Positions 1 through 26,016 of a stretch of 64,000 bases of DNA are shown here, piece by piece. The stretch covers positions 121,006 to 185,005 of the forward strand of contig JAFTXP010000014.1 of the NCBI GenBank assembly GCA_017461545.1. The letters run 5' to 3'. The notes beneath the pieces were generated by a model. It saw only the letters and a program-made list of their open reading frames with translations. It was not told the origin of the DNA and did no database searches. The DNA comes from Clostridia bacterium (GTDB lineage Bacteria > Bacillota > Clostridia > UBA1212). Both the position numbers and the translations under genes were made by a program. Every line of letters begins with the position of its first letter. The stretch's first letter is position 1.

Positions 1-1639
1 TAATAAATTCTGAAATTATATCTATAGAATTTGAAATATCCTCAGTACCGAAAGCACAAGCTAAATCTATTAAAACTTTTTTCAATGCATTATCACTATT
101 AGATTTCTCCAATAATAATTTCCATACAGGAATTATACAAAGTGCGACTGCGTGTCCATGACTGATATTATAATCTGTTGTCAATTTATAACTCATAGAA
201 TGAGCAGCAGTTGTTCTTGTAATATTAATTGCTCTTCCGCTATAATTTGAAGCAGTAATAATATCTTCATAGCACTCTTCTTTTCCGTTTAAATAGTCTT
301 TATAATTATTTAAAATTAATCTTATGCATTTCTTAGAATATTCTTTACTTTCTTCTGTTGCTCCTTTAGACCAAAACGATTCTACTGCCTGACATAACGA
401 ATCCAGTATAGTTGATTTTTTTTGATAATCAGGTAATGTCTTTAATGCATCAGAGCATAATATTGCATGATCAGGCAATGCACATCCATAATCTATCGAT
501 ATTTTTTTACCTTTATGATACATAACAGCAATTTGGGTTGATTCGCTGCCGCTGCCTGCCGTTGTAGGGACAGCAATGTGTCTCATATTATTATATTTAA
601 ATTTCTTTTCTAAAAAATCATATTCATTTTCTAATGAAGAAAATAGCTTTATACATTTTGCAACATCAATTGCACTTCCTCCACCAATAGAAATAATTAC
701 TTTATAATCACGTTTTTTAAAAAGTTCTACGCCTTTTTTTATCTCTTCATATTTTGGATTTGAAGTAAAATCAGTGAATAAGCTATATTCATAATCCACA
801 AATTCTTTTTTAACAGAATCGGTTAATCTATTACTGCAAACAACAAAAATGTTATCATTAAACCCTATTAATTCCTTTATTGATTTAAAATAATCACCGG
901 AAACTGTAATTGGCTGTTCTCTGTAATCAAAGAACTTAATTTCATTTAAAACACGATTATAATCTATTTCATTATCTATCTCATCAATATAATCATTTTT
1001 ATAAGACATACCTTGTATATTTAATTTATGTGATATTTCGTTTAAAGCGTTTTCAGCATAAACATTAACATATCCTGCCGAAACAAATTCAGCAACTTTA
1101 TTCTTCCATAAAGTCAAATCTTTTTTACTTAACTTATATAGCGGCTGGAAAGCATAACAATCATTATCAAATATATTTATTGAAACTTCTAACAATTTAT
1201 TATCCTTAAATCTACATTTGAAATCCTTTTCCGGCAATGATTTTGTTTCATCATAAAGACAAACTGATTCATTTTTATTTTCTAATAATTTTATAACTAA
1301 ATTTTTATTAAAAACCAAATCACCATGGAGTAATAACACATCATCATCTAAAAATATATTGGCATTATTCATTGATACAATATAATTAGTTTTTTTATAA
1401 TCATCATTTGCAACAAAATCAAAATGAAGATTTCTGAATTTATTTGCAATGTCGTATAATTGCTCTTTAAACGGTCCTGTGGTAATTATAAAATCTTTAA
1501 TTCCGCACTCACTTAAAATTCTTATTTGTCTTTCAAATATTGTTTCACCATTATATAACTTAACCATACACTTTGGATTATTTTCGGTCAATCCTGCCAT
1601 TCTGCTGCCTAATCCTGAGTTAAATATTAATGCTTTCAT
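1..1639 (-). CDS. Bifunctional LicC-like nucleotidyltransferase (phosphonate cytidylyltransferase-type) fused to iron-containing alcohol dehydrogenase (phosphonoacetaldehyde reductase-like). Partial: the C-terminus lies beyond the window start.
   Basis: Hand translation of the minus strand from ATG at 1639 (RBS AAGGA upstream) gives MKALIFNSGLGSRMAGLTENNPKCMVKL..., a GxGxR nucleotidyltransferase N-terminal domain. It is followed by the Fe-ADH glycine motif ISIGGGSAIDVAKCIKLF and a later HGHAVAL. The frame stays open to position 1. The ORF track does not list it because it runs off the edge. Confidence 0.6.
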   Translation of the reverse strand, partial: MKALIFNSGLGSRMAGLTENNPKCMVKLYNGETIFERQIRILSECGIKDFIITTGPFKEQLYDIANKFRNLHFDFVANDDYKKTNYIVSMNNANIFLDDDVLLLHGDLVFNKNLVIKLLENKNESVCLYDETKSLPEKDFKCRFKDNKLLEVSINIFDNDCYAFQPLYKLSKKDLTLWKNKVAEFVSAGYVNVYAENALNEISHKLNIQGMSYKNDYIDEIDNEIDYNRVLNEIKFFDYREQPITVSGDYFKSIKELIGFNDNIFVVCSNRLTDSVKKEFVDYEYSLFTDFTSNPKYEEIKKGVELFKKRDYKVIISIGGGSAIDVAKCIKLFSSLENEYDFLEKKFKYNNMRHIAVPTTAGSGSESTQIAVMYHKGKKISIDYGCALPDHAILCSDALKTLPDYQKKSTILDSLCQAVESFWSKGATEESKEYSKKCIRLILNNYKDYLNGKEECYEDIITASNYSGRAINITRTTAAHSMSYKLTTDYNISHGHAVALCIIPVWKLLLEKSNSDNALKKVLIDLACAFGTEDISNSIDIISEFI

Positions 1640-2762
1640 TTTTATTCCTTAACTTTTCTTGAAATTCTTTTTTATTAAACGCCGGAGTTGTTGTAGGTCT
1701 TCCTAAGTCCTGTCTTGAAATATTATTTGTATTAATTATCATTGCAATTTTACTATTATTTTTTAATAGTTTAATATTACTTTTCAGTTCTTCTTCGGTA
1801 CATGCAATTAATACTTCTTCAAATCCAAATGCTTTCAAGATTGAATATAGATCAATTTTATCGGAGATTGTCGGCTGTCCTCCGACAGATTCATGACATC
1901 CATTATTGATAAGTATATATTTAAAATTATTTTTAACATTTTGCATTGCTACTGCCAGTCCACCTAAGTGCATTAAGAAAGAACCATCTCCATCTATGCA
2001 AAATATATTTTTATTACTAAACAGACTTATTCCTGCTGCTAAAGATGCTGTATGTCCCATAGAACCAACTGTCAAAAAATCATTAGCGTGATTCTTATCT
2101 TTCTTTTCTCTTATTTCGAAAATTTCCCTTGATGTCTTACCGGTTGTTGAAACTACAAAATCATTATCAGATATATTATTTATAATTATTTCCAGTGATT
2201 TTTCTCTGGTTAAATCATTAATACTATTGTTTTTTATTTGGTTTTCATATTTTGAAAAAGTATCTTTTTTTACAATTACAGCAATAGGTTTTTCATTTTT
2301 TTTAATATAATTGTGACAATAGTTGATTTGATTTTTATATTCATCATTTAAAACAATGTATTTAATATTTAATGTATCTAATAAAGGTAATGTTAATTCT
2401 CCTTGTTTGATATGTTGCGGCTCATCTTTTACACCGGGTTCTCCTCTATAACCAATAACTAACAACATAGGAATTTTATATACGTTCTCATCTGCCAAAG
2501 ATAAAAGAGGATTAATAATATTACCAAGCCCGGAATTCTGCATATATACCAGTCCATAATCAGATGTTGAAATATTGTACCCACACGCTAACGCTAAAGC
2601 ATTACCTTCATTTGCTGCTATTATATGATTCTTACTCGGTGATTTATCTGTTATACACATACAAAGTTCTTTCAATAACGAATCAGGCACCCCCGTAAAA
2701 AAGGTAAATTCATTATCTAATAATGTGTTATAAAAATCTAATGGATTAATCACTACTATCAC
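1620..2762 (-). CDS. ppd: Phosphonopyruvate decarboxylase (TPP-dependent)
   Basis: 380 aa. N-terminal FFTGVPDSLLKEL and TPP-binding GDGSFLMHLGG...NNG motifs. Typical Ppd length. Overlaps and follows the PEP mutase gene. Confidence 0.75.
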   Translation of the reverse strand: MIVVINPLDFYNTLLDNEFTFFTGVPDSLLKELCMCITDKSPSKNHIIAANEGNALALACGYNISTSDYGLVYMQNSGLGNIINPLLSLADENVYKIPMLLVIGYRGEPGVKDEPQHIKQGELTLPLLDTLNIKYIVLNDEYKNQINYCHNYIKKNEKPIAVIVKKDTFSKYENQIKNNSINDLTREKSLEIIINNISDNDFVVSTTGKTSREIFEIREKKDKNHANDFLTVGSMGHTASLAAGISLFSNKNIFCIDGDGSFLMHLGGLAVAMQNVKNNFKYILINNGCHESVGGQPTISDKIDLYSILKAFGFEEVLIACTEEELKSNIKLLKNNSKIAMIINTNNISRQDLGRPTTTPAFNKKEFQEKLRNKNESINI

Positions 2763-3639
2763 CTATTACTTTTAATATTTCTTCCATGGATGCACAATAG
2801 TTTTCGCTGACATCTTTTGAACATTCATCCTTTAATATTTGTTCGGCAACCATTGTCATTACTTTATAAGAACTTCTCAGCAATTGATTTGCATAAATTA
2901 CTATGTTAGCTCCTCGATCAAATAATTCGTGTTCTTTAAATTGATTATATGCAGTCGGCACTACAACTAACGGGATGTTAACATATTTTATTTTAAATCG
3001 GGTAATAAAATCTAAAATTTCCTGTCCATCATTTTTATAACTATGAATCATTATTCCATCAGCTCCCGCTTTAACATAAGCATCGGCTCTGTCCATCGCA
3101 TCTTCTACATCTTTACCGGCAATAAAACTTTCTACTCTGGCAATAATCATAAAATCATCTGTTTGAAGATGAGATTTACCTTTTTTAATTTTATCAGCAA
3201 ATATTTCTTTATCTTCTAATATTTGAACAGCTTTATTACCCAATAAAGAGTTTTGCTTCAAGCCTTTTTTATCCTCAATAATAACAGCCGATACTCCGAT
3301 TCTCTCTAAAGTTTTAACATTATAAATAAAATGTTCTACATGTCCGCCTGTATCACCATCTACTATAATTGGTTTTGATGTGACTTCCATTATTTCCTCA
3401 ATAGTCTTAACTCTGCTTGAAAAATCTATCACTTCATTGTCAGGTTTTCCTTTTAGAGTAGAATCACACAATGAACTTAACCACATAGCGTCATATTCTT
3501 TATTATCAACTTTTGTATTTTCAACAATTAATCCTGTCAATCCATTTGATGCTTCCAGTACTCTCAAAATTTTTTTCTTATATAAAATTTGTTTTAATCT
3601 TTTTCTTCTTACTTCCGGCATATTGTTATTCACGCACAT
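2746..3639 (-). CDS. pepM: Phosphoenolpyruvate mutase (PEP phosphomutase)
   Basis: Carries the ICL/PEPM-family motif VIIEDKKGLKQNSL (EDKxxxxxNS) and DGDTGG. About 297 aa from ATG (MCVNNN...). The track ORF 2746..3654 begins at an upstream TTG. Adjacent to ppd. Confidence 0.75.
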   Translation of the reverse strand: MCVNNNMPEVRRKRLKQILYKKKILRVLEASNGLTGLIVENTKVDNKEYDAMWLSSLCDSTLKGKPDNEVIDFSSRVKTIEEIMEVTSKPIIVDGDTGGHVEHFIYNVKTLERIGVSAVIIEDKKGLKQNSLLGNKAVQILEDKEIFADKIKKGKSHLQTDDFMIIARVESFIAGKDVEDAMDRADAYVKAGADGIMIHSYKNDGQEILDFITRFKIKYVNIPLVVVPTAYNQFKEHELFDRGANIVIYANQLLRSSYKVMTMVAEQILKDECSKDVSENYCASMEEILKVIGDSSD

Positions 3640-4285
3640 CAGTCCCTCTTGCAATTAATCTGTAAATTAACTTACCATTAAGCTTCAAAAATAACCAAAT
3701 ATTTTTAAATATACTAACATAATCCATATAGTCTTTTGTCGCTTCTTTTGTCTTTAGAAAATATTCTTCTTTATAGAAATATTTACTTAGTAAAACATCT
3801 AAGTTTTTTATGTTATATTTGTAATATTGCTCTTCCATTGTTACCGAATCAGATAATTCTACTATTTTACTTACAAATGACATACAATTATAAGCTTTAT
3901 AAATTTTAAACCCATGAAATATTGGCATTGTAATCATTGAAAAGAAATTAAATATATATTCATCATCATTTGATATATTATTTATAAACTTTTCAATTTC
4001 ATTTTTATTTTCTCTTGATACCGGTATTTTAAATATTTTTAATTTTACATATTTGTTTTTTCCAAAAGCATAACAATCCAACGTTTCAATCATAAAACCA
4101 CAATCAAAAGGTGAATAATGTTTTCTTCTTGAAAAAGTAATAAATTTATCAAGCTTATCATCTAAACATACAGCAATATGAGTATAGTCATATTTCGCGA
4201 ACAATCTTGCAAACTTACCCAAACCTGTTAATGCTTTTACTAATACAACATATATACAATCATTTTGACTCTCGTTCTTCTGCAT
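3626..4285 (-). CDS. Hypothetical protein (219 aa) embedded in the phosphonate cluster
   Basis: ORF overlaps both neighbours in an operon-like arrangement. No motif I can name. Lys/Asn/Tyr-rich and predicted soluble. Confidence 0.4.
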   Translation of the reverse strand: MQKNESQNDCIYVVLVKALTGLGKFARLFAKYDYTHIAVCLDDKLDKFITFSRRKHYSPFDCGFMIETLDCYAFGKNKYVKLKIFKIPVSRENKNEIEKFINNISNDDEYIFNFFSMITMPIFHGFKIYKAYNCMSFVSKIVELSDSVTMEEQYYKYNIKNLDVLLSKYFYKEEYFLKTKEATKDYMDYVSIFKNIWLFLKLNGKLIYRLIARGTDVRE

Positions 4286-4964
4286 CTTTTTTACTTAGCC
4301 TTTTAAATAATTGAATTTGTAATCTAATCATTTCATAATACATTGGTATTCCGCCAACAATAAATACAATATCTGCAAATTTTAATTTAACGTCTAAAAC
4401 TTCTACTATCACATTTGGTCCGAATATCATACTTCCTATACATAAAACAATAAAAAATAAATGTGTTTCAATCGGTCCGAGTCTCGGAAATAAAAATTCT
4501 TTTAAGTATAAAATATAATTCATTGCCGTAAAAATTATAAGTGCATAAACCGGTACTAAAAAAATTGATATTTGAAAACTAACAAATCCTGCAAAAGAAA
4601 GAGCGATTATTAAATATGTAATATGTAATATATCACTCAACAAATCAAAATATCCACCTGCTATTGATGACATATTTCTAGTTCTTGCTACATAACCATC
4701 AAGATCATCACAAATTAAATGACATAAAAGACCTGATATAGTTCCTATCAAAAATAATGGATTGAGCTTAGCTAAAAACGCACAGACAATTCCAATCAAT
4801 CCACCTATTGCTCCAATTAAGGTTATTTGATTAGGAGTCATATTTTTAGGAATATGAACACCTACCCGTTTATATAAAAATTGTTGGAAACCGGTTTCTA
4901 ATTTACTGGGTATTATTTTTTTCACTTTATCTTCTTTTGCCACATTATTTTCACTCATGATCAT
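4260..4964 (-). CDS. CDP-alcohol phosphatidyltransferase family protein
   Basis: 234 aa, multi-TM. Family signature CDDLDGYVARTRNMSSIAGGYFDLLSDILH (D-G-x2-A-R...G-x3-D-x3-D). Confidence 0.7.
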   Translation of the reverse strand: MIMSENNVAKEDKVKKIIPSKLETGFQQFLYKRVGVHIPKNMTPNQITLIGAIGGLIGIVCAFLAKLNPLFLIGTISGLLCHLICDDLDGYVARTRNMSSIAGGYFDLLSDILHITYLIIALSFAGFVSFQISIFLVPVYALIIFTAMNYILYLKEFLFPRLGPIETHLFFIVLCIGSMIFGPNVIVEVLDVKLKFADIVFIVGGIPMYYEMIRLQIQLFKRLSKKDAEERESK

Positions 4965-6330
4965 TTCTCCTTTTTGATTTAAACATATTAACTATAAATG
5001 ATTTAATATAATCACCGTAATCTATAAAATCATAAACTCCTTCTTTTTTCCCTTTTAAAAATAATTTTATCAACAGCATATAATAATTTAAATAATATTT
5101 CTTTACACTCATTTTAGACGGTTTAGCTACAACATGAAGATAATCCCAATGGGATGGATTATCAGTTATAATTCTGTCCCTATACATGTCATAAGTTTCT
5201 ATCCCAAATTCAGGTGTAAAAATAGAAATCGCAACGTGTTTCAAATTATGGTTTTTTATCCATTTATATAACAATTTAAAATCTTTTGATTCGAAATCTA
5301 AATCAACAATAAACATTCCCATAATGTTTATTCCGTACTTATTGCAAATGTCGATACTTTTAATATTGTTATTTACATTAGACTTCTTATTATATTTTGT
5401 TAAATTATTATCATTTATCGCTTCTAATCCAACTAAAACATAATACAGACCTATGTCTTTTAGCTCTCTCATTGTTTCTTCATTCTGAACTATAAAATCA
5501 GATCTTCCGTAACATATATATTTCTTATTAACTTTTTTCTGTTTAATCAATGAAATAAAATTTTTTAATCTTTCTTCATTAAATAGAAAATCATCATCAA
5601 CTATATAAATATTATCTGTCTTTATTTTTGATATTTCATTTACTACATCTTCTATATCTCTGTAAACATATTTTCCGCAATTCATTCTGTTCCTGTGACA
5701 GAACTTACAATGATATGGGCAACAATATGCCGTTCTTACCCATGCTGAATGTTCTAGTTCCAAATAACGATAATTATTAGGATGTTCATAAAAATAAGTT
5801 CTGTCCGGCAATGGTAATTCGTTTATATCAAATGGTTTAGATTCATTTTTTATCCATACATTATCTCTTTTATAACAAATACCATCAACATTCTCTAATT
5901 TTATTTTCTTTTTGTTTATACTGTAATCAACCATATCCAATATTTTAAAAATATCAAATGTAGTCAAAATATAATCAACACAATCTTTGTACATTCTTTC
6001 ATAACTTAGTTGTGCGTGTAATCCCCCGATAATTGTTAAAATATTACTATTAAACTTTTTAGCTTCTTCGCAATATTCAAGCATAAAGTTTTCTTGTCTT
6101 GTTCTACCACATACATATACAACATCCGGATTAATTTCTTTTATTTTAGTTGGTACATCAATTTTTTCAATTTGACCGTCATATATATGTATTTCATAAT
6201 CTCGTTCTTTTAAAACACTTGAAATGTATTCTAATTCTAAACATTCGTTCTCTATAACTCCTACAAAGTTATACTTTGTTCTGGATATTTCAGGATGAAT
6301 TAAGAGAAATTTTAATTTTTTATTGTTCAT
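4951..6330 (-). CDS. B12-binding domain radical SAM protein (class B, Fom3-like candidate methyltransferase)
   Basis: N-terminal Rossmann/B12-like region (KLKFLLIHPEIS...). Radical SAM cysteine triad CPYHCKFC (CxxxCxxC). Likely start is ATG (MNNKK) with GAGG 9 nt upstream. The track start 6345 is an upstream ATG with no RBS. Confidence 0.7.
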   Translation of the reverse strand: MNNKKLKFLLIHPEISRTKYNFVGVIENECLELEYISSVLKERDYEIHIYDGQIEKIDVPTKIKEINPDVVYVCGRTRQENFMLEYCEEAKKFNSNILTIIGGLHAQLSYERMYKDCVDYILTTFDIFKILDMVDYSINKKKIKLENVDGICYKRDNVWIKNESKPFDINELPLPDRTYFYEHPNNYRYLELEHSAWVRTAYCCPYHCKFCHRNRMNCGKYVYRDIEDVVNEISKIKTDNIYIVDDDFLFNEERLKNFISLIKQKKVNKKYICYGRSDFIVQNEETMRELKDIGLYYVLVGLEAINDNNLTKYNKKSNVNNNIKSIDICNKYGINIMGMFIVDLDFESKDFKLLYKWIKNHNLKHVAISIFTPEFGIETYDMYRDRIITDNPSHWDYLHVVAKPSKMSVKKYYLNYYMLLIKLFLKGKKEGVYDFIDYGDYIKSFIVNMFKSKRRNDHE

Positions 6331-6440
6331 CTTCATCCGCCTCATTAATTACAATAATTCATAATTTCTTTCTACAATTTTTTGTTAATTCTGCTCGATC
6401 CTTTGTTTAAATACGCTATTATAAAACTTATATCAAAAAG

Positions 6441-7091
6441 TTAAGATTTTTTTACACTTACTATACCGCTATATTTACTAATCACTTTTGTTTCTAATTC
6501 ATTTTTATCCATATTTTCCTCTAACAATTTCTTTATTGCATTAAATAGTTTTTCATTTGCCTTTTCCATATCCAACTTTGATACATCTATTGGTTTACCA
6601 AATACTATTTTTAAATTCTTGGAAAACATCTTATAACTTCCTGTTATTGAATAAGGAACAATAATGCTATTGGTTTTTTTCGCCATTGATACTGCACCGT
6701 ATTTAAAGGGTAGCAATAGTTCTTCAGTATAATTCCTTTTTGCTTCAGGAGATAAATTAATTAAATTACCTTCTTTCAGCTTTTCTGTTGCAGCATCAGA
6801 GGCGGCTTTATTAGTTGCACTGTTTAAATCAACAGGTATTGTTCCAACCGCTCTAAAAAAGAATCCAAATATTCCATCATGCAAATTTTTTTTGGCTAAA
6901 GTAAATACTATCCGCTTTGTACAAACATCTACTAATATCGGATCTAATGCGTGTTTATGATTCCCTGCAATTATTGCAGCACCATTTTTAGGTATGTATT
7001 GCTCATTTATAATCTTCGGTCTAAATACAAATTTGAATAACGGTAAAAATATCACTCTAAATACTTTATACAAATAATACTTCTTTGTCAT
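6441..7091 (-). CDS. 1-acyl-sn-glycerol-3-phosphate acyltransferase family (PlsC-like)
   Basis: 216 aa. HxxxxD acyltransferase motif (AGNHKHALDP). RBS AAAGGAG and an extended -10 promoter lie upstream. AT-rich like the downstream cluster. Confidence 0.65.
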   Translation of the reverse strand: MTKKYYLYKVFRVIFLPLFKFVFRPKIINEQYIPKNGAAIIAGNHKHALDPILVDVCTKRIVFTLAKKNLHDGIFGFFFRAVGTIPVDLNSATNKAASDAATEKLKEGNLINLSPEAKRNYTEELLLPFKYGAVSMAKKTNSIIVPYSITGSYKMFSKNLKIVFGKPIDVSKLDMEKANEKLFNAIKKLLEENMDKNELETKVISKYSGIVSVKKS

Positions 7092-7117
7092 AAAAACTCC
7101 TTTTGTTTACAAAAAAC

Positions 7118-7146
7118 ATTATACCACATTTTACAAATATTGACTA
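7118..7146 (-). promoter_or_regulatory. Sigma-A-type promoter for the plsC-like and phosphonate cluster genes
   Basis: Minus-strand reading TAGTCA-17 nt-TGgTATAAT (extended -10), about 25 nt upstream of the start at 7091. Confidence 0.4.
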
Positions 7147-7191
7147 AAGCATATTAAGAGATGTAATGTATTACCTCTGATTTTCATTGCA

Positions 7192-7228
7192 AAAAAATTG
7201 TCTACACTTTATTGTGCAGACAATTTTA
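7192..7228 (-). terminator. Intrinsic terminator downstream of secA
   Basis: Near-perfect inverted repeat ttgtctacac/gtgcagacaa followed by a T7 run on the minus strand. Confidence 0.6.
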
Positions 7229-7343
7229 TTATCTTATATTTTTTAATACATTTCTAAATTCTGTATTATTATCAATTCAAACCTTACCATCGTTTATATT
7301 ATCGTGAAATGCAAACGATGGCAATAATTCTACCTGCATCAAC

Positions 7344-10151
7344 TTAATCATCATCCTTGCCGCAGCAATCCTTATATTTCTTACCGCTTCCGCAGGGGCA
7401 TTTATCATTTCTTCCTACTTTAGCAGTATTTCTCTTATAAGTATTTATACTATTTTTACCGGAAGCAATTGCCGCAGGGTCTTCACCTTTAGCATTCACC
7501 GTTACCGAAGAACGTGTCACATCGGTCGTATCAAATTTCTCTGAAAAGCTCTTTGCAATTTTCTGACGCTCAATGGCCTCATCCATCTTAGAAAAATTTG
7601 TAAACAATGTTCTGACAGTATTTTTCTGAATGTCTGCATTCATTTCATCAAACATTTCGCTTGCCTCAAACTGATATTCTACAACAGGATCATGATGTCC
7701 GAGAGATCTGAGACCTATACCGTGCTTTAACTGATCAACAGCATCAATATGTGTCATCCAATTTGTATCTACTATCCTTAAAAGAATACTTCTTTCATAT
7801 TCACGCATTTTTTCAGGATCAAACATTTTTTCGTGTTCTTCATAACGATTTATTGCTTCGGAATATAAAGATTCTTTTAAATCATTCTTCTTGGCATTTG
7901 AACAATTATTACAAACATCGTTTAAAGTGTCTGCAGACACGAGCGCAGCCATGGAATCTCTGAAAGCGTCAACATGCCATTCTGAAGAAGGAATATCTTT
8001 TCTGCAAAACTCGTCAACAGCATTTTCTATGACACGTTTTATCATATTCATCAAAACTTCTCTGATATCTTCCCCGTCAAGCACACGTCTTCTTTGCTCA
8101 TATATAATCTCACGTTGCTGATTTATTACATCATCATACTTTATGACATTCTTTCTGATTTCAAAGTTTCGGCTTTCAATCTGTTTCTGAGCATTTTCTA
8201 TAGCCCTTGTAATCATTTTCATCTCGATAATCGGTTGATCTTCCGGAACATCAAGTGCATTTACAAGACCTGCAACTCTGTCTGAACCGAAAAGACGCAT
8301 TATATCATCTTCAAACGAAATGTAAAATCTTGATTCACCCGGGTCCCCCTGTCGGCCTGAACGACCGCGAAGCTGATTATCTATACGTCTTGACTCATGA
8401 CGCTCTGTACCCATAATAAACAGACCGCCTGCTTCTCTGACCTTTTCGCGCTCTGCATTTACGTCAACAGAAAACTTCTCAACAAGATCCTTATATGTCT
8501 TTCTTACATCGCATATCAATTGGTCATCTGTATCATTTACGCCGTCAGCTTCCAATACCATAGCTTCTTCGTATCCCATTCTGCGAAGTTCCTGCTTTGC
8601 CATATGCTCAGCATTACCGCCCAATGTAATATCGGTACCACGTCCTGCCATGTTTGTAGCTATTGTTACAGCGCCTAACTTACCGGCCTGAGCAACAATC
8701 TCTGCTTCTCTTTCATGATGCTTAGCATTAAGAACATTATGTTTGATGCCATGTTTCATAAGTAACTTGCTCAGATACTCGGATTTCTCAATAGAAACAG
8801 TACCTACAAGTACAGGCTGTCCTTTTTCGTGAGCCTTTATAACATCATTTGCCAAAGCCTGATATTTACCCTTTACAGACTTGAAAACCGCATCCTCATG
8901 GTCAATTCTTTTTACAGGTTTGTTTGTAGGAATAACAACTACATCAAGGTTGTAGATTTCATTAAATTCCTCTTCTTCGGTAAGAGCAGTACCGGTCATA
9001 CCGGAAAGCTTTTTGTACATACGGAAATAGTTCTGGAAAGTAATCGTTGCAAGTGTCATACTCTCCTTTTCTACTTTTACACGCTCTTTAGCCTCAATAG
9101 CCTGATGCAAGCCTTCGTTGTATCGTCTTCCGATCATAATACGACCGGTAAATTCGTCGACAATCAAAACACTGTTGTCTTTTACAACGTAATCAATATC
9201 ACGCTTCATAATTCCGTGAGCTTTGATAGCCTGATTTATATGATGTGCAATAGATGCATTTTCCGGATCGGAATAACATTCGATATTAAACCAAGCCTCA
9301 GCTTTTGCAATACCGTTTCTGGTAAGTGTTGCAGTACGGGCTTTTTCATCAACGATGTAGTCTTCTTCCACATCCTCCATCAAGTCTTTTTTGTCAGCTT
9401 CTTTTATGACAAGTTTTGAAAGCGATACTGCAAATGAGTTTGCCTTTTCGTACATTTCGCTGGATTTATTGCCCTGACCCGAAATGATCAAAGGAGTACG
9501 TGCTTCGTCGATGAGAATACTATCCACTTCGTCAACAACGGCAAAGTGAAGATCACGCTGTACCATCTCACTCTTATATCGAACCATATTGTCACGGAGA
9601 TAATCAAATCCCAGCTCATTGTTTGTTCCGTAAGTAATATCACATGCATATGCCTGCTGTCTCTGCTCATGGTTCATATCGTGTATAACAACACCGACAG
9701 AAAGTCCGAGAAAATTGTAAATTTTACCCATCCATTCGCTGTCACGCTTTGCAAGGTAATCATTTACCGTAACAACATGTACGCCTTTGCCTTCCAATGC
9801 ATTAAGATACGCCGGCAATGTAGAAACAAGGGTTTTACCTTCACCGGTTTTCATCTCGGCAATTCTGCCCTGATGCAGAACAACACCGCCTATAAGCTGA
9901 ACATCATAATGACGCTGTCCGAGGACACGCCATGCGGCTTCGCGTACCACAGCAAAAGCTTCAGGCAATATGCTGTCAAGAGTTTCTCCCTCGGCAATTC
10001 TTGCTTTAAACTTATCCGTCATGCCTCTGAGCTCTTTGTCACTTAAAGATTTCATTTTAGGCTCAAGAGAATTTATTTCATTTATTATCGGTTTAATTTC
10101 TTTTACGGCTCTTTCACTGTTCGAGCCGAATATTTTTTCAAATAGACCCAT
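7344..10151 (-). CDS. secA: Preprotein translocase ATPase SecA
   Basis: 935 aa with a DEAD-like motor. C-terminal zinc finger [14 protein letters not shown]. Confidence 0.95.
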
Positions 10152-10224
10152 TTATAGTAAACCTCATTTATTTAATAATATTATTTTTTATAATACCGCA
10201 ATTTAAGTATTATGTCAAAAGCAG

Positions 10225-10827
10225 TCAAAGACCGCCGAGCTCATCAAGCGAGCATTCAAAAGAAGGTATAAAATTATCTATAAAATAATCTGCCTCCGGC
10301 ATATTCATAACCTTTATACTTTCTGCAGTAGCCTTTTTAGCGGCAAGAAATTCGCTGTTTCCCGATTTAACTTCCTCGATGCACTTGATATGTGCCGAGA
10401 TCTTATCGGCCGCTTTAACTATCTTTTTGCACTCCTCGTTATCCTCATCAAAGAAAAGTATCTCCTCATATTCTTTTCTGAAATCATCGGGAAGCATTTC
10501 AAGCAATCGGTTTTTGCTTAAATTCTCTATCTCGCGGTAGGACTCATTTATCTGATGATTGAAATATTTTACCGGCGTCGGCAAATCTCCGGTAATCGTT
10601 TCGTTTGCATCATGGTATAACGCATAAATACAAATCCTGTCCGCGTCATAATTTTTACCGTAATACTTATTGCCTATCAAAGCAAGCATATGTGCAAGCA
10701 TCGCCGTCTGACCGCTGTGCTCCAGAATATTTTCTGTAGCGGTGTTTCTCATAAGACCCCAGCGATTTATATATTTCATGCGGTTTAAGTATGCGAAAAA
10801 ACTTTTATCATTTTGTAAACTTTTCAT
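10225..10827 (-). CDS. yfbR: HD-domain 5'-deoxynucleotidase (YfbR-like)
   Basis: NRWGLMRNTATENILEHSGQ and YHDANETITGDLPTPVKY closely resemble YfbR. Likely start is MKSLQ... with GAGGT RBS. The track start 10845 lies inside a hairpin. Confidence 0.7.
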   Translation of the reverse strand: MKSLQNDKSFFAYLNRMKYINRWGLMRNTATENILEHSGQTAMLAHMLALIGNKYYGKNYDADRICIYALYHDANETITGDLPTPVKYFNHQINESYREIENLSKNRLLEMLPDDFRKEYEEILFFDEDNEECKKIVKAADKISAHIKCIEEVKSGNSEFLAAKKATAESIKVMNMPEADYFIDNFIPSFECSLDELGGL

Positions 10828-10845
10828 AAAGTACCTCAAAGGCAT

Positions 10846-10885
10846 TCACGCAGCGACAGCAGATATGCCAGCTGTCGCTGCGTGA
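10846..10885 (-). promoter_or_regulatory. Perfect 15-bp-stem RNA hairpin between the prfB stop and the yfbR RBS, with no U-tract
   Basis: tcacgcagcgacagc-agatatgcca-gctgtcgctgcgtga. No T run follows on either strand. Possible processing or stability element, or weak attenuator. Confidence 0.45.
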
Positions 10886-10894
10886 AAATAACCG

Positions 10895-12005
10895 TTATTT
10901 ATTATTAAATTCGTTAGCAAGGAAAGCGTTGATAAATCCGTCCAACGCTCCGTCCATAACCTTCTGTACATTCGTATCTTCAAAAGATGTTCTGTGGTCT
11001 TTTACAAGAGTATACGGGCAAAATACGTATGAACGAATCTGACTGCCCCAGGCAATCTCTTTCTGTACACCTTTTATGTCCGAAATTTTCTCAACCTGCT
11101 CTTGCTGTTTTATTTCAAACAGCTTTGACTTAAGCATTTTCATAGCAGTTTCAGTATTCTGGAGCTGCGAACGCTCAGTCTGACAAGAAACCATAATGCC
11201 TGTAGGCTTGTGAACGATACGCGTAGCCGAGTCAGTTTTGTTTATGTGCTGACCGCCGGCACCGCTTGAACGGTAGTGGCTCACTTCTATATCCTCTGCC
11301 GGTATATCGATCTCTATGGTATCATCTATCTCGGGCATTACCTCAACTGACGTAAACGATGTGTGACGTCTGCCGGCCGAGTCAAACGGCGAAATTCTGA
11401 CGAGACGGTGAACACCGTGCTCACTCTTCAGAAAACCGTAAGCATTTATTCCGTTTACCTGAATAACAGCACTTTTTATACCTGCATCATCGCCGTCAAG
11501 AAAGTCAATAAGCTTTACTTCGTAACCGTGCGCATCGCCCCAACGTGTGTACATACGGAGAAGCATCTGAGTCCAGTCCTGTGCCTCCGTTCCGCCGGCC
11601 CCGGAGTGAAGTGTCAGAATCGCATTATTTGCGTCATATTCGCCGGTAAGAAGCGTTTCAAGACGAAGTGCATTAAACTCACTTTTAAATTTATCCATGA
11701 GTTCTGCAACAACATCAACATATGCAAGATCCTGCTCTTCGTTTCCGATTTCAATCGTGACCTGTATCTCTTCAAAAACAGACTCAAGTTCCGTAAATTT
11801 GCCCAATTTTTCTTTTAAAACCTTAAGCTGTTTGAGCACAGCCTGTGAATTTGCTGCATCGTTCCAGAAATCAGGTTCCGATGCTTTGTTTTCAAGTTCT
11901 TCTATCTTGTTTGACATCCCGGTCGTGTCAAAGTGAATCCCTCAAATCATATAAATTTTTCTGTAAACCCTCAAGCTCCAAGCTGAACTGGTCTAACTCA
12001 AACAT
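10895..12005 (-). CDS. prfB: Peptide chain release factor 2, with programmed +1 frameshift
   Basis: The track ORF 10895..11917 carries the GGQ motif SSGAGGQHINKTDSA and SPFDSAGRRHTSF. The upstream frame from ATG at 12005 reads MFELDQFSLELEGLQKNLYDLRDSL then CTT TGA C, the canonical RF2 frameshift site at about 11927-11933. That joins the main frame in +1 (DTTGMSNKIEE...). Confidence 0.9.
11927..11933 (-). other. prfB: Programmed +1 ribosomal frameshift site CTT TGA C in prfB
   Basis: Read directly: ...AGG GAT TCA CTT TGA CAC GAC C. An SD-like AGGGAT sits a few nt upstream, as in classic RF2 autoregulation. Confidence 0.8.
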
Positions 12006-14606: not shown

Positions 14607-15956
14607 TTACAATATTTCTCCGTTTGATTTTATAATATCCCTGTAATGATATGCAGAATCTTTAATAGTTCTCTTACCGGTTTCAAAATCAACATGAACA
14701 AGACCGAAACGTTTTGAATAACCCATACACCATTCAAAATTGTCAAGCATAGACCAGTAGAAATAACCTTTTACAGGGATACCCTCGTCTGCCGCCCTCT
14801 TATATGCTCTCAAATAGCGATCAATATAATCCATCCTGAGCGGATCGTGTACCTTTCCGTCAGCAAATACCCATGAGTTGTCAGATATTCCGTTTTCTGA
14901 AATCATTACAGGCAGTTTATATCTCTCATTCACCATTCTCGAAGCCCAATACAAACATTCCGGAACTACTGCCATAGGCATTGTAGACTCAGCTGCACCT
15001 ACCTTCTTAGGTAACATCTCATACATACCGTTTCCCGAAGACTTTTTATAGCGCACACCCGCATAGATATTCATCGAAAGATAGTCGAGCGGCTGAACAA
15101 CAGTCTTCATATCGTCCTGCCAGTAATCAGGAAGATAAGGCTCGTAATTTTTCGGATATTTTCCGAGAACCACAGGATCAAAACATTCTGCATAATCGCA
15201 TAAATACTTATCATCAGCTGTACGCTCAAAGTTCCTGCATCTTGCAGCCTCTATATCCTCGGGAGTCTCTGTAGCAGGTACAGCAAAATCACCGCAGGCA
15301 ACATACGAAACAGAAGGTTTGAGTTTTGATTCGCTTCTTATAACCTTTACAGCCTCGCCGTGACAAACCATATTGTTGTGCCATGTTCTTACAAAGTCAC
15401 CGAACGGAAGTCTAAGTCCCGGAGCCATTCCTCCTGTCAGATAGCCGTTAAGAAGATAGCACGGCGGCTCATTCTGTGTAAACCAATTCGCGACTCTGTC
15501 CGAATATCTGTCAACAACCTTCTGTGTATACTCCGCAAACCATTTTGAGCAGTCACGGTTTAAAAAACCGCCTTTATAAAGCAGTTCCAGAGGATAATCC
15601 CAATGGAAAAGCGTGACATACGGTGTAATGTTATTCTCGAGAAGATTATCTATAAGTCTGTCATAGTAATCCATCCCCTTTTCATTTACTTTTCCGATAC
15701 CCTCAGGTAAAATTCTCGGCCAGCTAAGCGAAAAACGGTATGCATTAACACCGATTTCCTTAAGTGCATAAATATCCTCGTTCATACGGTGATAACTGTC
15801 ACAAGCAGTATTTCCGTTATGATTTTCAAAGATTTTTCCGGGCTCATTTGAAAATCTGTCCCATACGGAAAGTCCCTTTCCGTCCTCAAATGCTGCACCT
15901 TCTATCTGATACGAGGCAGTCGCAGTACCCCATACAAAATCCTTTGGAAAACTCAT
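14607..15956 (-). CDS. bglA: GH1 beta-glucosidase / 6-phospho-beta-glucosidase
   Basis: 449 aa. N-terminal FPKDFVWGTATASYQIEGA. Catalytic TQNEP and ISENG motifs. Confidence 0.85.
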   Translation of the reverse strand: MSFPKDFVWGTATASYQIEGAAFEDGKGLSVWDRFSNEPGKIFENHNGNTACDSYHRMNEDIYALKEIGVNAYRFSLSWPRILPEGIGKVNEKGMDYYDRLIDNLLENNITPYVTLFHWDYPLELLYKGGFLNRDCSKWFAEYTQKVVDRYSDRVANWFTQNEPPCYLLNGYLTGGMAPGLRLPFGDFVRTWHNNMVCHGEAVKVIRSESKLKPSVSYVACGDFAVPATETPEDIEAARCRNFERTADDKYLCDYAECFDPVVLGKYPKNYEPYLPDYWQDDMKTVVQPLDYLSMNIYAGVRYKKSSGNGMYEMLPKKVGAAESTMPMAVVPECLYWASRMVNERYKLPVMISENGISDNSWVFADGKVHDPLRMDYIDRYLRAYKRAADEGIPVKGYFYWSMLDNFEWCMGYSKRFGLVHVDFETGKRTIKDSAYHYRDIIKSNGEIL

Positions 15957-15992
15957 TATACATTTCCTCCATAAATGTTAGTAATTTAAAAT

Positions 15993-17990
15993 TTATACTA
16001 TTTTTTCTTTTATTAAACCTTTGTTATATGTATACAATAATTTCTCAAGCTCACAAATGCTTCTTTTTATGTTTCTTCCGGTATCAGTATCCGCGACCAG
16101 AATTCTGTTTTTCGAATAATGGTATTCTACGGTCGAAGAAAGAATATCTTTTTCTTCACGAACCGCAATCTCCACTGATTCGAAAGGTTCGTGAGATACC
16201 AAAACCAAGCCGTGTGAGTTATAAATAAGCGTATATCCCGCAATTCCGGTAACTTTCTGATATGCTTTTGCAAAACCTCCGTCAATAACAAAAAGCTTAC
16301 CGTTTGCCTTTACCGGACGCTCTCCCTTTGTAACCTGAACGGGAACATGACCGTTTATTATATGCGAACAGCTCGGATCAAGGCCGAAGTCAGTCATGAT
16401 CTCATCGCACACAGCTTCGTTATCGCGCATCAGATAATACGGATTTCTTTTTTCTTTATGCGATGCAGGATCGTCTATAAAATATCTCTCAAAAGTAGTC
16501 ATTTTTACTTTTCCGAATACAGGAGAATCACTTCCGCACCACATGTACCATGTTTCATCAAGGCATCGATTCTTCTCTTCCGTATTGCGCACATTGAAAT
16601 AACCCTCGCGGATAGTTCTGTCGATAGAATCAAAGTACTCTCTGCCCTTTAACCTTTCGCCTCTGAAGCTTACCTCCTTAAGAGTACCGTCCTCATTCAT
16701 AGGAAGGCATCCGTGAAAAAGCAGGTTTGAATTGAATATAGTATATAAGCTGCCGTGTGTGAACAAAAATCTCACATGGCTCTGAAGTTTCTCATTCTTT
16801 ACAAAAGAAACCGTTATTTTTTCAAGAACATCAAGTTCTTCCTCCGTGAAAGCCGTCGGATTCTTCGGGTCAACAGTCGGGAACTCGGTATCATTCAATT
16901 CATATTTTACGCCTTCAATTTCTATTGTACCGTCTTCGAAATTAATCTTCTCAAGCAGAATCCTGTCATCCATATTGAAATTGGGATTGCGTTTGATAAT
17001 CTGAGCCTCACATTTAAATTGCATTATTGTAATAGCCTTATGCATTTTTGCAATCAGATTTATCTCTTTTTCACTCAGGAAGACGTTTTCCGCAACAGAA
17101 GGCATAAAATGCTCGCACGGATCCTTTTTGTATTTTTCCATAGCAAAAGTAGCAAGAGGAATAAGATTTATTCCGTATGCTTCTTCAATAGTATCGAGGT
17201 TTGCATATCTTGCCTGAATTCTTATAACGTTGCAGATAAGCGCCCTGCAGCCTGCAGCGGCACCCATCCAGCTAATGTCGTGATTACCCCACTGAATGTC
17301 AACGGAGTGATAATTTGATATCATATCCATTATTTTAACAGCATCACGTCCTCTGTCGTATATGTCACCGATAACATGGAGTCTGTCAATCGCAAGACGC
17401 TGAATGAGATGCGCCATCTCAATAATAAAATCATTTGCTCTGTACAAACGTATAATGGTTTCGATGATTTCGTCGTAATACTGTTGTTTGTCGGCACTGC
17501 CCGTACTGCTGTCTTCCTCGTGAAGAAGTTCCTCGATGATATAGGAGTAGTTTTTAGGAAGAGCCTTACGCACCTTTGAACGCGTGTACTTCGATGAAGC
17601 GGCCTTACACATGATAATCATGCGGTGAAGAATAATTCTGTACCAGTCATTTATATCTGTTTCTGTCTTTTCAACGATGGCAAGCTTCTTTTCAGGATAA
17701 TATATCAGCGTAGCCAGTGCCTTCTTCTCACATTCTCTCATAGTGTTACCGAAAACTCTGTCAATCAAATCTTTGATAACACCTGAGGCATTCTTTAAAA
17801 CATGTCGGAAAGATGCATATTCACCGTGTATATCTGATACAAAATGTTCTGTACCTTTTGGCAAGTTTAATATAGCCTGAAGATTGATTATTTCAGAACT
17901 TGCACTTTCTATCGTAGGATATTGTTTAGCAAGCAACTGCAAATAACGTAAATCTTCATCGTTTAATTCTATGGGTTTTGAATTTAACAT
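15993..17990 (-). CDS. fbp: Fructose-1,6-bisphosphatase class 3
   Basis: 665 aa. N-terminus YLQLLAKQYPTIESASSEIINLQAILNLPKGTEHFVSDIHGEY is typical of Firmicute FBPase III. Confidence 0.85.
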   Translation of the reverse strand: MLNSKPIELNDEDLRYLQLLAKQYPTIESASSEIINLQAILNLPKGTEHFVSDIHGEYASFRHVLKNASGVIKDLIDRVFGNTMRECEKKALATLIYYPEKKLAIVEKTETDINDWYRIILHRMIIMCKAASSKYTRSKVRKALPKNYSYIIEELLHEEDSSTGSADKQQYYDEIIETIIRLYRANDFIIEMAHLIQRLAIDRLHVIGDIYDRGRDAVKIMDMISNYHSVDIQWGNHDISWMGAAAGCRALICNVIRIQARYANLDTIEEAYGINLIPLATFAMEKYKKDPCEHFMPSVAENVFLSEKEINLIAKMHKAITIMQFKCEAQIIKRNPNFNMDDRILLEKINFEDGTIEIEGVKYELNDTEFPTVDPKNPTAFTEEELDVLEKITVSFVKNEKLQSHVRFLFTHGSLYTIFNSNLLFHGCLPMNEDGTLKEVSFRGERLKGREYFDSIDRTIREGYFNVRNTEEKNRCLDETWYMWCGSDSPVFGKVKMTTFERYFIDDPASHKEKRNPYYLMRDNEAVCDEIMTDFGLDPSCSHIINGHVPVQVTKGERPVKANGKLFVIDGGFAKAYQKVTGIAGYTLIYNSHGLVLVSHEPFESVEIAVREEKDILSSTVEYHYSKNRILVADTDTGRNIKRSICELEKLLYTYNKGLIKEKIV

Positions 17991-24876: not shown

Positions 24877-26016
24877 TTACATGCCGCTAAATAAACGGTC
24901 AAGTATATTTTCAATATCCTTCTCTTTCGGAACTCTCGGATTGCTCGTTGTACAAACATCCGCGAGAGCAGACTTTACTATAACAGGCTTTGCTTTTTCA
25001 AAAGCTTCACGTGACACACCTAACTCGACAAGAGTCGTCGGCAGCTTCATAAGTCTTAGCATTTCATTAATTTTCTTTATGAAACTCATAACACTCAAAC
25101 GTGTTCCTAAGGACTCATAACCTATTTTATTATACGCTATTGCGTACTTCTGAGCTGCAACTGATTTGTCCATTCCAAACGGCACATCAAGACATGAATT
25201 AAATGCAATGACATACGGAAGAACCATCGCATTAGCCGTACCGTGACTAATATGGAAATTTGCACCTAAGCCATGTGCAATACTGTGGGTTATGCCGAGA
25301 CCTGCATTATTAAAAGCAAGACCTGCAATATACGATGCCATGAGCATATTTTCACGGGCAGACAAATCACCGCCGTCCTTGTACGCCTTGTATAAGTTAT
25401 CAAAAGCAAGTACAAGACCTTTTTCTGCAAGTGAATCAGTTATAATATTTGATCCTGTAGATACATATGCTTCAAGAAGATGTGTTATTACATCCATACC
25501 TGTCGCGGCAGTGACTGCGGGGGGCACGCTCACCGTAAACTCCGCACACAAAACAGCAAGATCGGGAGCCATTTTTTTATCAACAATCGGATATTTTACA
25601 CCGTTTTCCTTATCGGAAATAACGGAGAAATCCGTAGCTTCTGAACCCGTACCGCTCGTAGTAGGAATTGCAACAAGCTCAATTTTTTTACCTGGATTAA
25701 CATCTGCGTCAACATATATTACAGCCTTCGCAGTATCTATTGCCGATCCGCCTCCGAAAGCAATGAAAACATCCGCATCGTGCTCTTTTGCAAACTTATA
25801 ACATGCGCCTACCTGTTCAATACTCGGGTCAGGTGCAATATTTGAATACACAAAACAGTTATTACCTTCAAGCTTACTAAGTACAGCATCGACTTTATGA
25901 TTTTCCGCTAAAAACGGATCTGTATATATTATTATATTTTTATTGTTATATCTTCTGAGTGCGTCAAGAGAATTTTCCCCGAAGCAAACATTCGACATAA
26001 TATTCAACTCAGTCAT
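24877..26016 (-). CDS. Iron-containing alcohol dehydrogenase (lactaldehyde reductase / propanol dehydrogenase-like)
   Basis: 379 aa. FGGGSAIDTAKAV and HSIAHGLGANFHISHGTANA Fe-ADH motifs. Sits beside the BMC locus regulator. Confidence 0.8.
   Translation of the reverse strand: MTELNIMSNVCFGENSLDALRRYNNKNIIIYTDPFLAENHKVDAVLSKLEGNNCFVYSNIAPDPSIEQVGACYKFAKEHDADVFIAFGGGSAIDTAKAVIYVDADVNPGKKIELVAIPTTSGTGSEATDFSVISDKENGVKYPIVDKKMAPDLAVLCAEFTVSVPPAVTAATGMDVITHLLEAYVSTGSNIITDSLAEKGLVLAFDNLYKAYKDGGDLSARENMLMASYIAGLAFNNAGLGITHSIAHGLGANFHISHGTANAMVLPYVIAFNSCLDVPFGMDKSVAAQKYAIAYNKIGYESLGTRLSVMSFIKKINEMLRLMKLPTTLVELGVSREAFEKAKPVIVKSALADVCTTSNPRVPKEKDIENILDRLFSGM

Follow-up and report, generated by a model that had tools for sequence, protein, structure and literature searches.

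A candidate two-part lipid cassette with an exchangeable head-group module, and its predicted 2-hydroxyethylphosphonate version, in Clostridia

A 64,000-nucleotide stretch of a Clostridia bacterium genome (contig JAFTXP010000014.1, positions 121,006 to 185,005; called the window here) opens with seven minus-strand genes that are predicted to encode a phosphonolipid pathway. Our reading, to which we assign a probability of about 0.5, is that this island is a horizontally acquired, two-part lipid cassette. One part would be a constant lipid module that acts on the hydrophobic or backbone part of the lipid. It consists of a PlsC-type acyltransferase, an acyl-AMP ligase (deleted in the window), a radical S-adenosylmethionine (SAM) enzyme with a B12-binding domain, and a YiiX-type enzyme. 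The other part would be an exchangeable head-group module, present here in a version for 2-hydroxyethylphosphonate (HEP). PepM would convert phosphoenolpyruvate (PEP) to phosphonopyruvate, and Ppd would convert phosphonopyruvate to phosphonoacetaldehyde, as homology above curated cut-offs predicts. An iron-dependent alcohol dehydrogenase (Fe-ADH) domain would then yield HEP, and the LicC/PntC-type domain fused to it would combine HEP with CTP to make CMP-HEP. Finally, a CDP-alcohol phosphotransferase would place HEP-phosphonyl on a lipid hydroxyl, most likely that of diacylglycerol, to give an HEP phosphonolipid. The radical SAM enzyme would not be of the Fom3 type.

The open reading frames (ORFs), together with Pfam and NCBIfam scans, place the seven genes in one direction across positions 1 to 7091 (Table 1). 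A sequence-only reading of this DNA had proposed an AT-rich block of seven minus-strand genes, and its assignments held gene by gene. The profile scans returned every domain family that it had listed, and every motif that it had quoted was found (EDKKGLKQNS, GDGSFLMHLGG, GGGS, DDLDGYVAR...G...D...D, CPYHCKFC, and HKHALD). Five of the six gene junctions are overlaps of 14 to 29 nt, and the sixth is a gap of 95 nt (6346 to 6440). On the source contig (L067, to which the 219-aa protein gave an exact match; other loci are also cited by L numbers), the cluster stops after the fusion gene and is followed by genes for a tetratricopeptide repeat protein and rpmF. Therefore, the seven genes are the full set here. 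The AT-rich composition was also borne out. The island has a GC content of 27.5% (27 to 29%), compared with about 40% from 8 kb onward in the window. In most relatives the cluster has the same GC content as its flanks, whereas here it is 12 to 13 points lower, and the nearest relatives of the window cluster are in genomes of 25 to 29% GC. The mismatch with the flanks and the low-GC relatives together argue for recent horizontal acquisition. We read the island as a horizontally acquired HEP version of the cassette, from which the ligase gene has been deleted.

Table 1. Features of the island and its upstream region (window positions)
Feature	Position	Strand	Basis
LicC/PntC-type nucleotidyltransferase and Fe-ADH fusion	1..1639	-	Pfam NTP_transf_3/NTP_transferase and Fe-ADH/ADH_Fe_C
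Phosphonopyruvate decarboxylase (Ppd), thiamine pyrophosphate (TPP) dependent	1620..2762	-	TIGR03297 equivalog and TPP motif
PEP phosphomutase (PepM/Ppm)	2746..3654	-	TIGR02320 equivalog and EDKKGLKQNS at residue 127
YiiX-type permuted papain-fold (NlpC/P60 clan) Cys-His enzyme, 219 aa (predicted)	3626..4285	-	predicted fold and conserved His/Cys
CDP-alcohol phosphotransferase, integral membrane	4260..4964	-	Pfam PF01066, motif DDLDGYVARTRNMSSIAGGYFDLLSD, hydrophobic spans
B12-binding-domain radical SAM enzyme	4951..6345	-	Pfam B12-binding and Radical_SAM; CPYHCKFC
Acyl-AMP ligase (AMP-binding) deletion scar	6346..6440	-	collinear remnants of both gene ends relative to L005
PlsC-superfamily acyltransferase, first operon gene	6441..7091	-	PF01553 and HKHALD
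secA-to-cluster intergenic region	7092..7343	-	likely promoter region; candidate site only

Hundreds of close homologues of the radical SAM enzyme (66 to 88% identity) were found in Lachnospiraceae genomes and in metagenomes from gut and rumen. When one genome was scanned for each species, 62 loci were obtained; one was a remote match (27%), and the 61 others were used. These are labelled mostly as Lachnospiraceae or unclassified Clostridia, and they include Butyrivibrio, Agathobacter, Roseburia, Faecalimonas, Acetatifactor, and Anaerosporobacter. The loci were scored with the window proteins and with the AMP-binding protein from relatives. Sixty entries were fully scored, and 51 were assessable for head-group genes. 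A conserved core was apparent, consisting of the acyltransferase, the acyl-AMP ligase, the radical SAM enzyme, the CDP-alcohol phosphotransferase, and the YiiX-like protein. All four companions of the radical SAM gene were present in 47 loci, and all but the ligase in 7 more. The system is not peculiar to this island but widespread in Lachnospiraceae and Ruminococcus.

The core occurs in several forms. PepM and/or Ppd accompany it at 23 of the 51 assessable loci, and a stand-alone nucleotidyltransferase of ~250 aa is its only such companion at 18. One locus has the core plus a nucleotidyltransferase-ADH fusion, with PepM and Ppd absent nearby, and the remaining 9 have none of these genes within 6 to 10 kb. 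On a tree of the radical SAM enzyme, the phosphonate, nucleotidyltransferase-only, and bare forms are thoroughly interleaved. The nearest relative of the window cluster, in which the radical SAM enzyme is 88% identical, lacks PepM and Ppd at its locus, and its stand-alone nucleotidyltransferase is 82% identical to the N-terminal domain of the window fusion. At L007, a major facilitator superfamily (MFS) gene lies between the core and a stand-alone nucleotidyltransferase (84% identical to the window domain). The MFS protein is of the type of organophosphate:phosphate antiporters; it scored 148.9 bits against the model of the PgtP/UhpC/GlpT subfamily, which is below the cut-off. L005, L014, L018, and L059 have the same gap between core and nucleotidyltransferase as L007, and their nucleotidyltransferases are 78 to 84% identical. 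The antiporter-type MFS gene and the nucleotidyltransferase-only loci suggest that import replaces synthesis there. Across the loci that carry phosphonate genes, the pairwise divergence of PepM and Ppd follows that of the radical SAM enzyme no less closely than does that of the core genes (Spearman rho, 0.75 to 0.78, compared with 0.72 to 0.74 for the core genes). Therefore, the phosphonate genes appear to be an old, linked part of the cassette that was then repeatedly lost or replaced.

We examined the constant module member by member. The acyltransferase gene was found in 56 of the 60 fully scored entries. Its product scored 81 bits against PF01553 (cut-off, 23) and has HKHALD as its HX4D motif, in keeping with the PlsC-type enzyme named in the sequence-only reading. 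It also scored 74.4 bits against the lysophosphatidic acid acyltransferase model TIGR00530, below the cut-off of 102.95; what it matches there is the acyltransferase portion of enzymes of the Aas type. In most relatives, the ligase gene sits between the acyltransferase and radical SAM genes, and in the window this position is taken by the 95-nt scar. The 5' part of the scar matches the start of the AMP-binding gene in L005 (6580 to 6613), and its 3' part matches the end of that gene (8109 to 8142). The two matches are collinear, and each was equalled by 2 of 300 shuffles. No AMP-binding homologue was found anywhere in the 64-kb window. The collinear remnants of both gene ends argue that the ligase was deleted in this lineage, by an internal deletion of ~1.5 kb. 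Six other loci are also without the ligase (L037, L039, L040, L046, L047, and L057). In relatives that have it, the ligase is of the long-chain type (355 bits to a fatty-acid-CoA ligase model).

The 219-aa protein had been listed as unknown. No Pfam or NCBIfam family matched it, in agreement with that description, and a PDB sequence profile search was also empty. However, structure comparison gave it a YiiX-type permuted papain fold. This identity came from fold comparison alone, with an AlphaFold model of mean pLDDT 78. In an alignment of 21 homologues, His36 (in Y-x-Y-T-H-I-A) and Cys134 (in N-C-M) were invariant. The protein has both features looked for in a YiiX-type enzyme, the fold and a conserved His ahead of a conserved Cys. 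We therefore assign it as a Cys-His enzyme of this type, and it is plausibly an acyl hydrolase or transacylase. The same fold is also that of lipid acyltransferases.

An exhaustive search of cluster representatives gave a graded series of more distant radical SAM relatives. One protein, P0241, is 47 to 48% identical to the window enzyme, and Ruminococcus proteins (including those of R. flavefaciens) are 53 to 57% identical to P0241. The Ruminococcus clade has the same five-gene core. It stands alone in L070, and in L072 it is back-to-back with Ppd and a nucleotidyltransferase-cytidylyltransferase-PepM triple fusion. The locus of P0241 itself has retained only the radical SAM and YiiX-like genes. 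At L073 and L074, where the radical SAM enzyme is at 45% identity, the acyltransferase, the ligase, the radical SAM enzyme, and the YiiX-like protein (36% identical; E = 1e-36) are all present, and the CDP-alcohol phosphotransferase is not orthologous to that of the window (E = 0.13). These two loci also encode a class-I methyltransferase, an Rce1-like protein, and a haloacid dehalogenase (HAD) protein resembling phosphatidylglycerophosphate (PGP) phosphatase. Neither carries a nucleotidyltransferase gene or any phosphonate gene. The L073 version of the cassette (913 to 10408; contig GC, 25%) has TnpV, MobC, and relaxase genes immediately upstream, and it may be carried on a mobile element. 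The comparison with Ruminococcus and L073/L074 therefore leaves an invariant set consisting of the acyltransferase, the ligase, the radical SAM enzyme, and the YiiX-like protein, with the transferase and the head-group supply being exchangeable. A bolder proposal, which we put forward only tentatively, is that this set constitutes an undescribed pathway of gut and rumen Firmicutes. The radical SAM enzyme would alter an unactivated tail or backbone carbon (by methylation or C-C bond formation), and the head groups would be swappable; one version would be the first HEP lipid, made in situ or from imported organophosph(on)ate.

The phosphonate genes of the window are well supported by curated models. 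PepM scored 360.5 bits against TIGR02320 (curated cut-off, 319.55) and has the EDKxxxxxNS motif, which is what sets PepM apart from isocitrate-lyase-type relatives. Ppd scored 422.8 bits against TIGR03297 (cut-off, 312.5) and has the GDG...NN TPP-binding motif. Both enzymes had been named in the sequence-only reading, with the caveat that the PEP mutase might lack catalytic residues and belong with the methylisocitrate lyases. The motif is in place, and the methylisocitrate lyase model (prpB) scored only 101.8 bits, so that this identity was ruled out.

The fusion protein, also named there as a LicC-like nucleotidyltransferase joined to an Fe-ADH, has its C terminus cut by the window edge; the full length on the source contig is 594 aa. 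Both Pfam domains were found, as were GLGSRM and GGGS motifs. The nucleotidyltransferase domain (residues 1 to ~240) belongs to PF12804/PF00483 and has the N-terminal G-x-G-x-R loop, and its best PDB relatives are LicC (1jyk; E = 1.7e-9) and PntC (6pd1; E = 1.2e-7). Specificity for CTP and a phosphonate is predicted. The Fe-ADH domain is the sole redox enzyme of the head-group route in the window. Domain scans found no aminotransferase (2-aminoethylphosphonate [AEP] transaminase) in the cluster, and the Fe-ADH stands in its place. On the basis of the domain families, the fusion, and the lack of an aminotransferase, we propose that this protein converts phosphonoacetaldehyde to HEP and then to CMP-HEP. 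The fusion partner of the nucleotidyltransferase differs between lineages, being ADH in the window, Ppd in L032, and PepM in L041 and L072. Cytidylyl activation of the phosphonate would thus be the step that recurs, and Fom1 and PntC are precedents for it (PMC6697681).

Other arrangements of these genes were also seen. The window contains a second, stand-alone Fe-ADH homologue (24877 to 26016, minus strand) that shares 28% identity with the fused ADH domain. Upstream of the core in Butyrivibrio proteoclasticus P6B7 (L032, 1478 to 5921), a true Ppd (489 bits) is joined to a nucleotidyltransferase, and a sodium:alanine-symporter-family transporter and a separate Fe-ADH are also encoded; no PepM lies within 10 kb. 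It is possible that phosphonopyruvate derives there from an imported compound, such as phosphonoalanine. A nucleotidyltransferase/Fe-ADH fusion that is 43% identical to that of the window follows the core in L055 (12864 to 14699), with no PepM or Ppd nearby. At L020, which has PepM and Ppd, a stand-alone 238-aa nucleotidyltransferase is followed by ~1.3 kb without a long ORF (14707 to 16751); this stretch may be a decayed ADH domain.

The CDP-alcohol phosphotransferase is the only candidate consumer of CMP-HEP in the cluster. It matched PF01066 at 43.2 bits (cut-off, 22) and has the complete motif DDLDGYVARTRNMSSIAGGYFDLLSD at residues 86 to 111, as anticipated from the sequence. Several hydrophobic spans fit a polytopic membrane protein. 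Its best PDB relatives are CEPT1 (E = 6.8e-5) and CHPT1 (E = 1.3e-4), followed by AF2299 and IPCT-DIPPS. CEPT1 and CHPT1 use diacylglycerol and CDP-activated head groups. We propose that the transferase moves HEP-phosphonyl from CMP-HEP onto a lipid hydroxyl. Across the loci examined, no glycosyltransferase, LicD, flippase, or polymerase was found either within the cluster or beside it. Because there is no glycan machinery and the transferase is closest to CEPT1 and CHPT1, a lipid is favored over a glycan. At L035 (12066 to 12563), the usual transferase is missing between the radical SAM and YiiX-like genes, and a short (165-aa), non-orthologous CDP-alcohol phosphotransferase follows the YiiX-like gene.

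The radical SAM enzyme has an N-terminal B12-binding domain and a CxxxCxxC core, which is a class B architecture. Both Pfam domains had been foreseen, and cobalamin binding is predicted. Its best NCBIfam families are HpnR (143.6 bits), BchE (113.3 bits), and PhpK (83.6 bits), none of which comes near its cut-off, and no Fom3-specific model is among its NCBIfam matches. The only PDB sequence match is AprD4, which is a 1,2-diol dehydratase and not a methylase. With a model of pLDDT 81.7, Foldseek matched OxsB, MgmA, TsrM, AprD4, CysS, and TokK. This comparison does not separate methylases (MgmA, TsrM, CysS, and TokK) from the non-methylating OxsB and AprD4. The archaeal tetraether synthase GDGT-MAS is a remote structural match only (TM, 0.30).

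The sequence-only reading had cast this protein as a Fom3-type C-methylase that turns CMP-HEP into CMP-2-hydroxypropylphosphonate, so that the lipid would carry a hydroxypropylphosphonate head group. The class B architecture would suit that role, and CMP-HEP is the substrate of Fom3 (PMC8158854). The radical SAM gene also overlaps the CDP-alcohol phosphotransferase gene, has a nucleotidyltransferase nearby at 42 of the 51 assessable loci, and has long been co-inherited with PepM and Ppd. However, it is well conserved at the 28 of 51 loci that are free of PepM and Ppd, including the 9 that have no nucleotidyltransferase within 6 to 10 kb, and on its tree the forms with and without phosphonate genes are intermixed. 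L070, L071, and L073 likewise hold it in contexts free of phosphonate genes, and sister clades keep it while the head-group transferase is replaced. HpnR, its best curated family, and BchE both outscore the phosphonate enzyme PhpK, and the cluster has no FomD-like or HppE-like gene. The enzyme is not obligately tied to genes that supply HEP or CMP-HEP, and its retention without them makes a Fom3-type role unlikely. A dedicated methylase of CMP-HEP is therefore improbable, and any head-group role is unlikely. The most economical reading is that the enzyme acts on the part that is common to all versions of the cassette, which is the lipid part, and C-methylation or another radical change there is the most likely reaction.

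Two further alternatives concern the product. With the transferase polarity reversed, as in PGP and phosphatidylinositol-phosphate synthases, CDP-diacylglycerol would be the donor and the HEP hydroxyl the acceptor, giving phosphatidyl-hydroxyethylphosphonate with a terminal phosphonate beyond the reach of any phosphatase. The best NCBIfam matches of the transferase are in fact archaetidylinositol-phosphate and phosphatidylinositol-phosphate synthases, which take CDP-diacylglycerol or CDP-archaeol as the donor. In addition, the loci free of a nucleotidyltransferase must rely on a general CDP donor, and L073 has the PGP-phosphatase-like HAD gene. However, the transferase of L073 is not orthologous to that of the window, and if HEP served only as an acceptor, there would be no point in the nucleotidyltransferase fusions (with ADH, Ppd, or PepM) seen in separate lineages. 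CEPT1 and CHPT1, the best solved relatives, also speak for a CDP-activated head group, and we regard reversed polarity as quite doubtful. Least probable of all, in our view, is a nonlipid product, with CMP-HEP decorating a glycan or teichoic-acid-like polymer or entering a soluble phosphonate diester as in IPCT/DIPPS. It is on glycans that most characterized surface modifications with phosphonates are found, and an exopolysaccharide bearing HEP is known (PMC8942020); the nucleotidyltransferase and the CDP-alcohol phosphotransferase also both match IPCT/DIPPS weakly. Against it, glycan machinery is missing in and beside the cluster at every locus examined, and the partners that stay constant comprise an acyltransferase, an acyl-AMP ligase of the long-chain type, and a protein whose fold is shared with lipid acyltransferases.

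Several points weigh against the HEP phosphonolipid cassette as we have described it. A product has yet to be seen for any cluster of the cassette family. The Fe-ADH domain scored 115.7 bits against the phosphonate-associated Fe-ADH model TIGR03405, below its cut-off of 423.7 and level with generic Fe-ADH families, and its role as a phosphonoacetaldehyde reductase, and hence HEP itself, is deduced from context. What the nucleotidyltransferase uses as substrate and what the transferase uses as acceptor (diacylglycerol) are both predictions from sequence, and the NCBIfam matches of the transferase favor the opposite polarity. The absence of phosphonate genes was scored within ~6 to 10 kb, and PepM could sit elsewhere in those genomes. 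The radical SAM enzyme was set apart from Fom3 by context and family scores rather than by direct sequence comparison, and its long co-inheritance with PepM and Ppd is also what would be expected of a head-group-modifying enzyme. Of the route first proposed, in which a CMP-activated HEP is installed on a lipid, the PepM and Ppd steps thus stand above curated cut-offs and the later steps are supported by context, whereas methylation to hydroxypropylphosphonate is disfavored.

Some radical SAM relatives occur in other settings. In two Lachnospiraceae loci (L044, 9935 to 11377, and L036, 8798 to 10171), the gene has only unrelated housekeeping genes around it and lacks all of its usual partners within reach. 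There are also distant relatives at ~28 to 35% identity (P0253, P0254, P0256, P0271, P0277, P0282, P0287, P0317, P0331, and P0332). Eight of these 10 are fused to a class-I SAM methyltransferase, and other partners are a FabD/enoyl-reductase-like module and a class I/II aminotransferase. A separate class-I methyltransferase adjoins or lies near the radical SAM gene in L076 and L073. Transfer of function from the distant fusion partners, and from the contexts of P0242 and P0244, was rejected because they are too remote or too short.

The cassette can be compared with four known systems. The predicted phosphonolipid clusters called "Group 1/Burkholderiales_CDP-OH" (Yu et al. 2013) consist of PepM, Ppd, an aminotransferase, a PntC-type cytidylyltransferase, and a CDP-alcohol phosphotransferase, and their products are uncharacterised (summarised in PMC8942020). 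A Nostoc example has also been described (PMC5987646). As in Group 1, the window groups PepM and Ppd with a step that tailors phosphonoacetaldehyde, a cytidylyltransferase of the PntC type, and a CDP-alcohol phosphotransferase, and the lipid product is predicted only. However, Group 1 clusters have an aminotransferase (for AEP or 1-hydroxy-AEP) and an oxygenase, whereas the window has an Fe-ADH fused to the cytidylyltransferase (for HEP). Group 1 clusters are found in Proteobacteria and Cyanobacteria and the window cassette in Clostridia. Also unlike Group 1, the window genes sit in a conserved module of B12-type radical SAM enzyme, acyltransferase, ligase, and YiiX-like protein that also exists without phosphonate genes.

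The early steps of fosfomycin synthesis in Streptomyces (Fom1, Fom2, FomC, and Fom3) resemble the window in having PepM, Ppd, an Fe-ADH, cytidylylation of HEP, and a B12-type radical SAM gene. In Fom1, however, a PF01467 cytidylyltransferase domain is fused to PepM (PMC6697681), whereas the cytidylyltransferase of the window is of the LicC/PntC type (PF12804/PF00483) and fused to ADH. The window also differs in its membrane CDP-alcohol phosphotransferase and acyltransferase and in a radical SAM enzyme that occurs independently of phosphonate genes. Neither the HppE (Fom4) epoxidase domain nor the FomD CMP-hydroxypropylphosphonate hydrolase domain was found among the seven products or the flanking genes. 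With these missing and membrane lipid enzymes present, a fosfomycin-like antibiotic cluster was ruled out. In Kennedy-type transfer (LicC/CCT with CEPT1/CHPT1, and PntC for AEP; PMC6697681), a CMP-activated phospho- or phosphono-alcohol is likewise passed to diacylglycerol. The substrate predicted for the window is HEP instead of choline, ethanolamine, or AEP, and the proteins are distant (E of ~1e-4 to 1e-9). HpnR, the B12-dependent hopanoid C-3 methylase, is similar to the radical SAM enzyme in being its best-scoring curated family and in its lipid context, but the score is 143.6 bits against a cut-off of 650, and there are no hopanoid genes.

The claim of novelty made for the island was partly upheld. 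We found no such HEP lipid route in the part of the literature that was searched. However, clusters combining PntC with a CDP-alcohol phosphotransferase for phosphonolipids have been described (PMC8942020), so the claim becomes narrower. HEP is known as a natural-product intermediate as well as on exopolysaccharide (PMC8942020). In the same search, we found neither this cassette nor an HEP lipid, and no report on phosphonates from Butyrivibrio or other Lachnospiraceae.

We also looked at the region around the island. The best candidate promoter in the secA-to-cluster intergenic region is TAGTCA-17-TATAAT with a TG extension (7146 to 7118). Promoter-like sites were no more common than in shuffled sequence (55 found and 54.7 expected), and the suggestion that the acyltransferase has its own promoter is not supported. 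An Rfam scan of positions 1 to 12000 found no riboswitch and no other RNA family. From 12000 to 64000, all 28 ORFs of at least 250 aa are on the minus strand, the GC skew stays negative over the whole length, and tRNA genes are absent. Other low-GC patches (31 to 36%) are at ~23 to 25 kb, 40 to 44 kb, 52 to 53 kb, 57 to 58 kb, and 61 to 63 kb.

Surface lipids or glycans are the presumed products of about half of bacterial phosphonate clusters, and almost no lipid product has been seen (PMC8942020 and PMC6697681). From the cassette, one specific new lipid is predicted, in which diacylglycerol is esterified to 2-hydroxyethylphosphonate. Its predicted producers are abundant gut and rumen anaerobes, and cultured strains carry the cassette, which makes the prediction directly testable. 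Among these strains, Butyrivibrio sp. LB2008 (L009) and Anaerosporobacter mobilis DSM 15930 (L025) have the full cluster, Lachnospiraceae bacterium A4 (L051) has the nucleotidyltransferase-only form, and Butyrivibrio sp. X503 and AE3009 and R. flavefaciens are free of phosphonate genes at this locus. The cassette further brings to light an orphan radical SAM enzyme of the B12 type, widespread and well conserved, that is tied to lipid genes. Nature has provided swap experiments in which the phosphonate is made, probably imported, or absent, and these narrow down the target of the enzyme. The P-C linkage of the head group would be expected to resist phospholipase-D-type cleavage. Furthermore, frequent head-group swaps between close relatives hint at selection acting at the cell surface.

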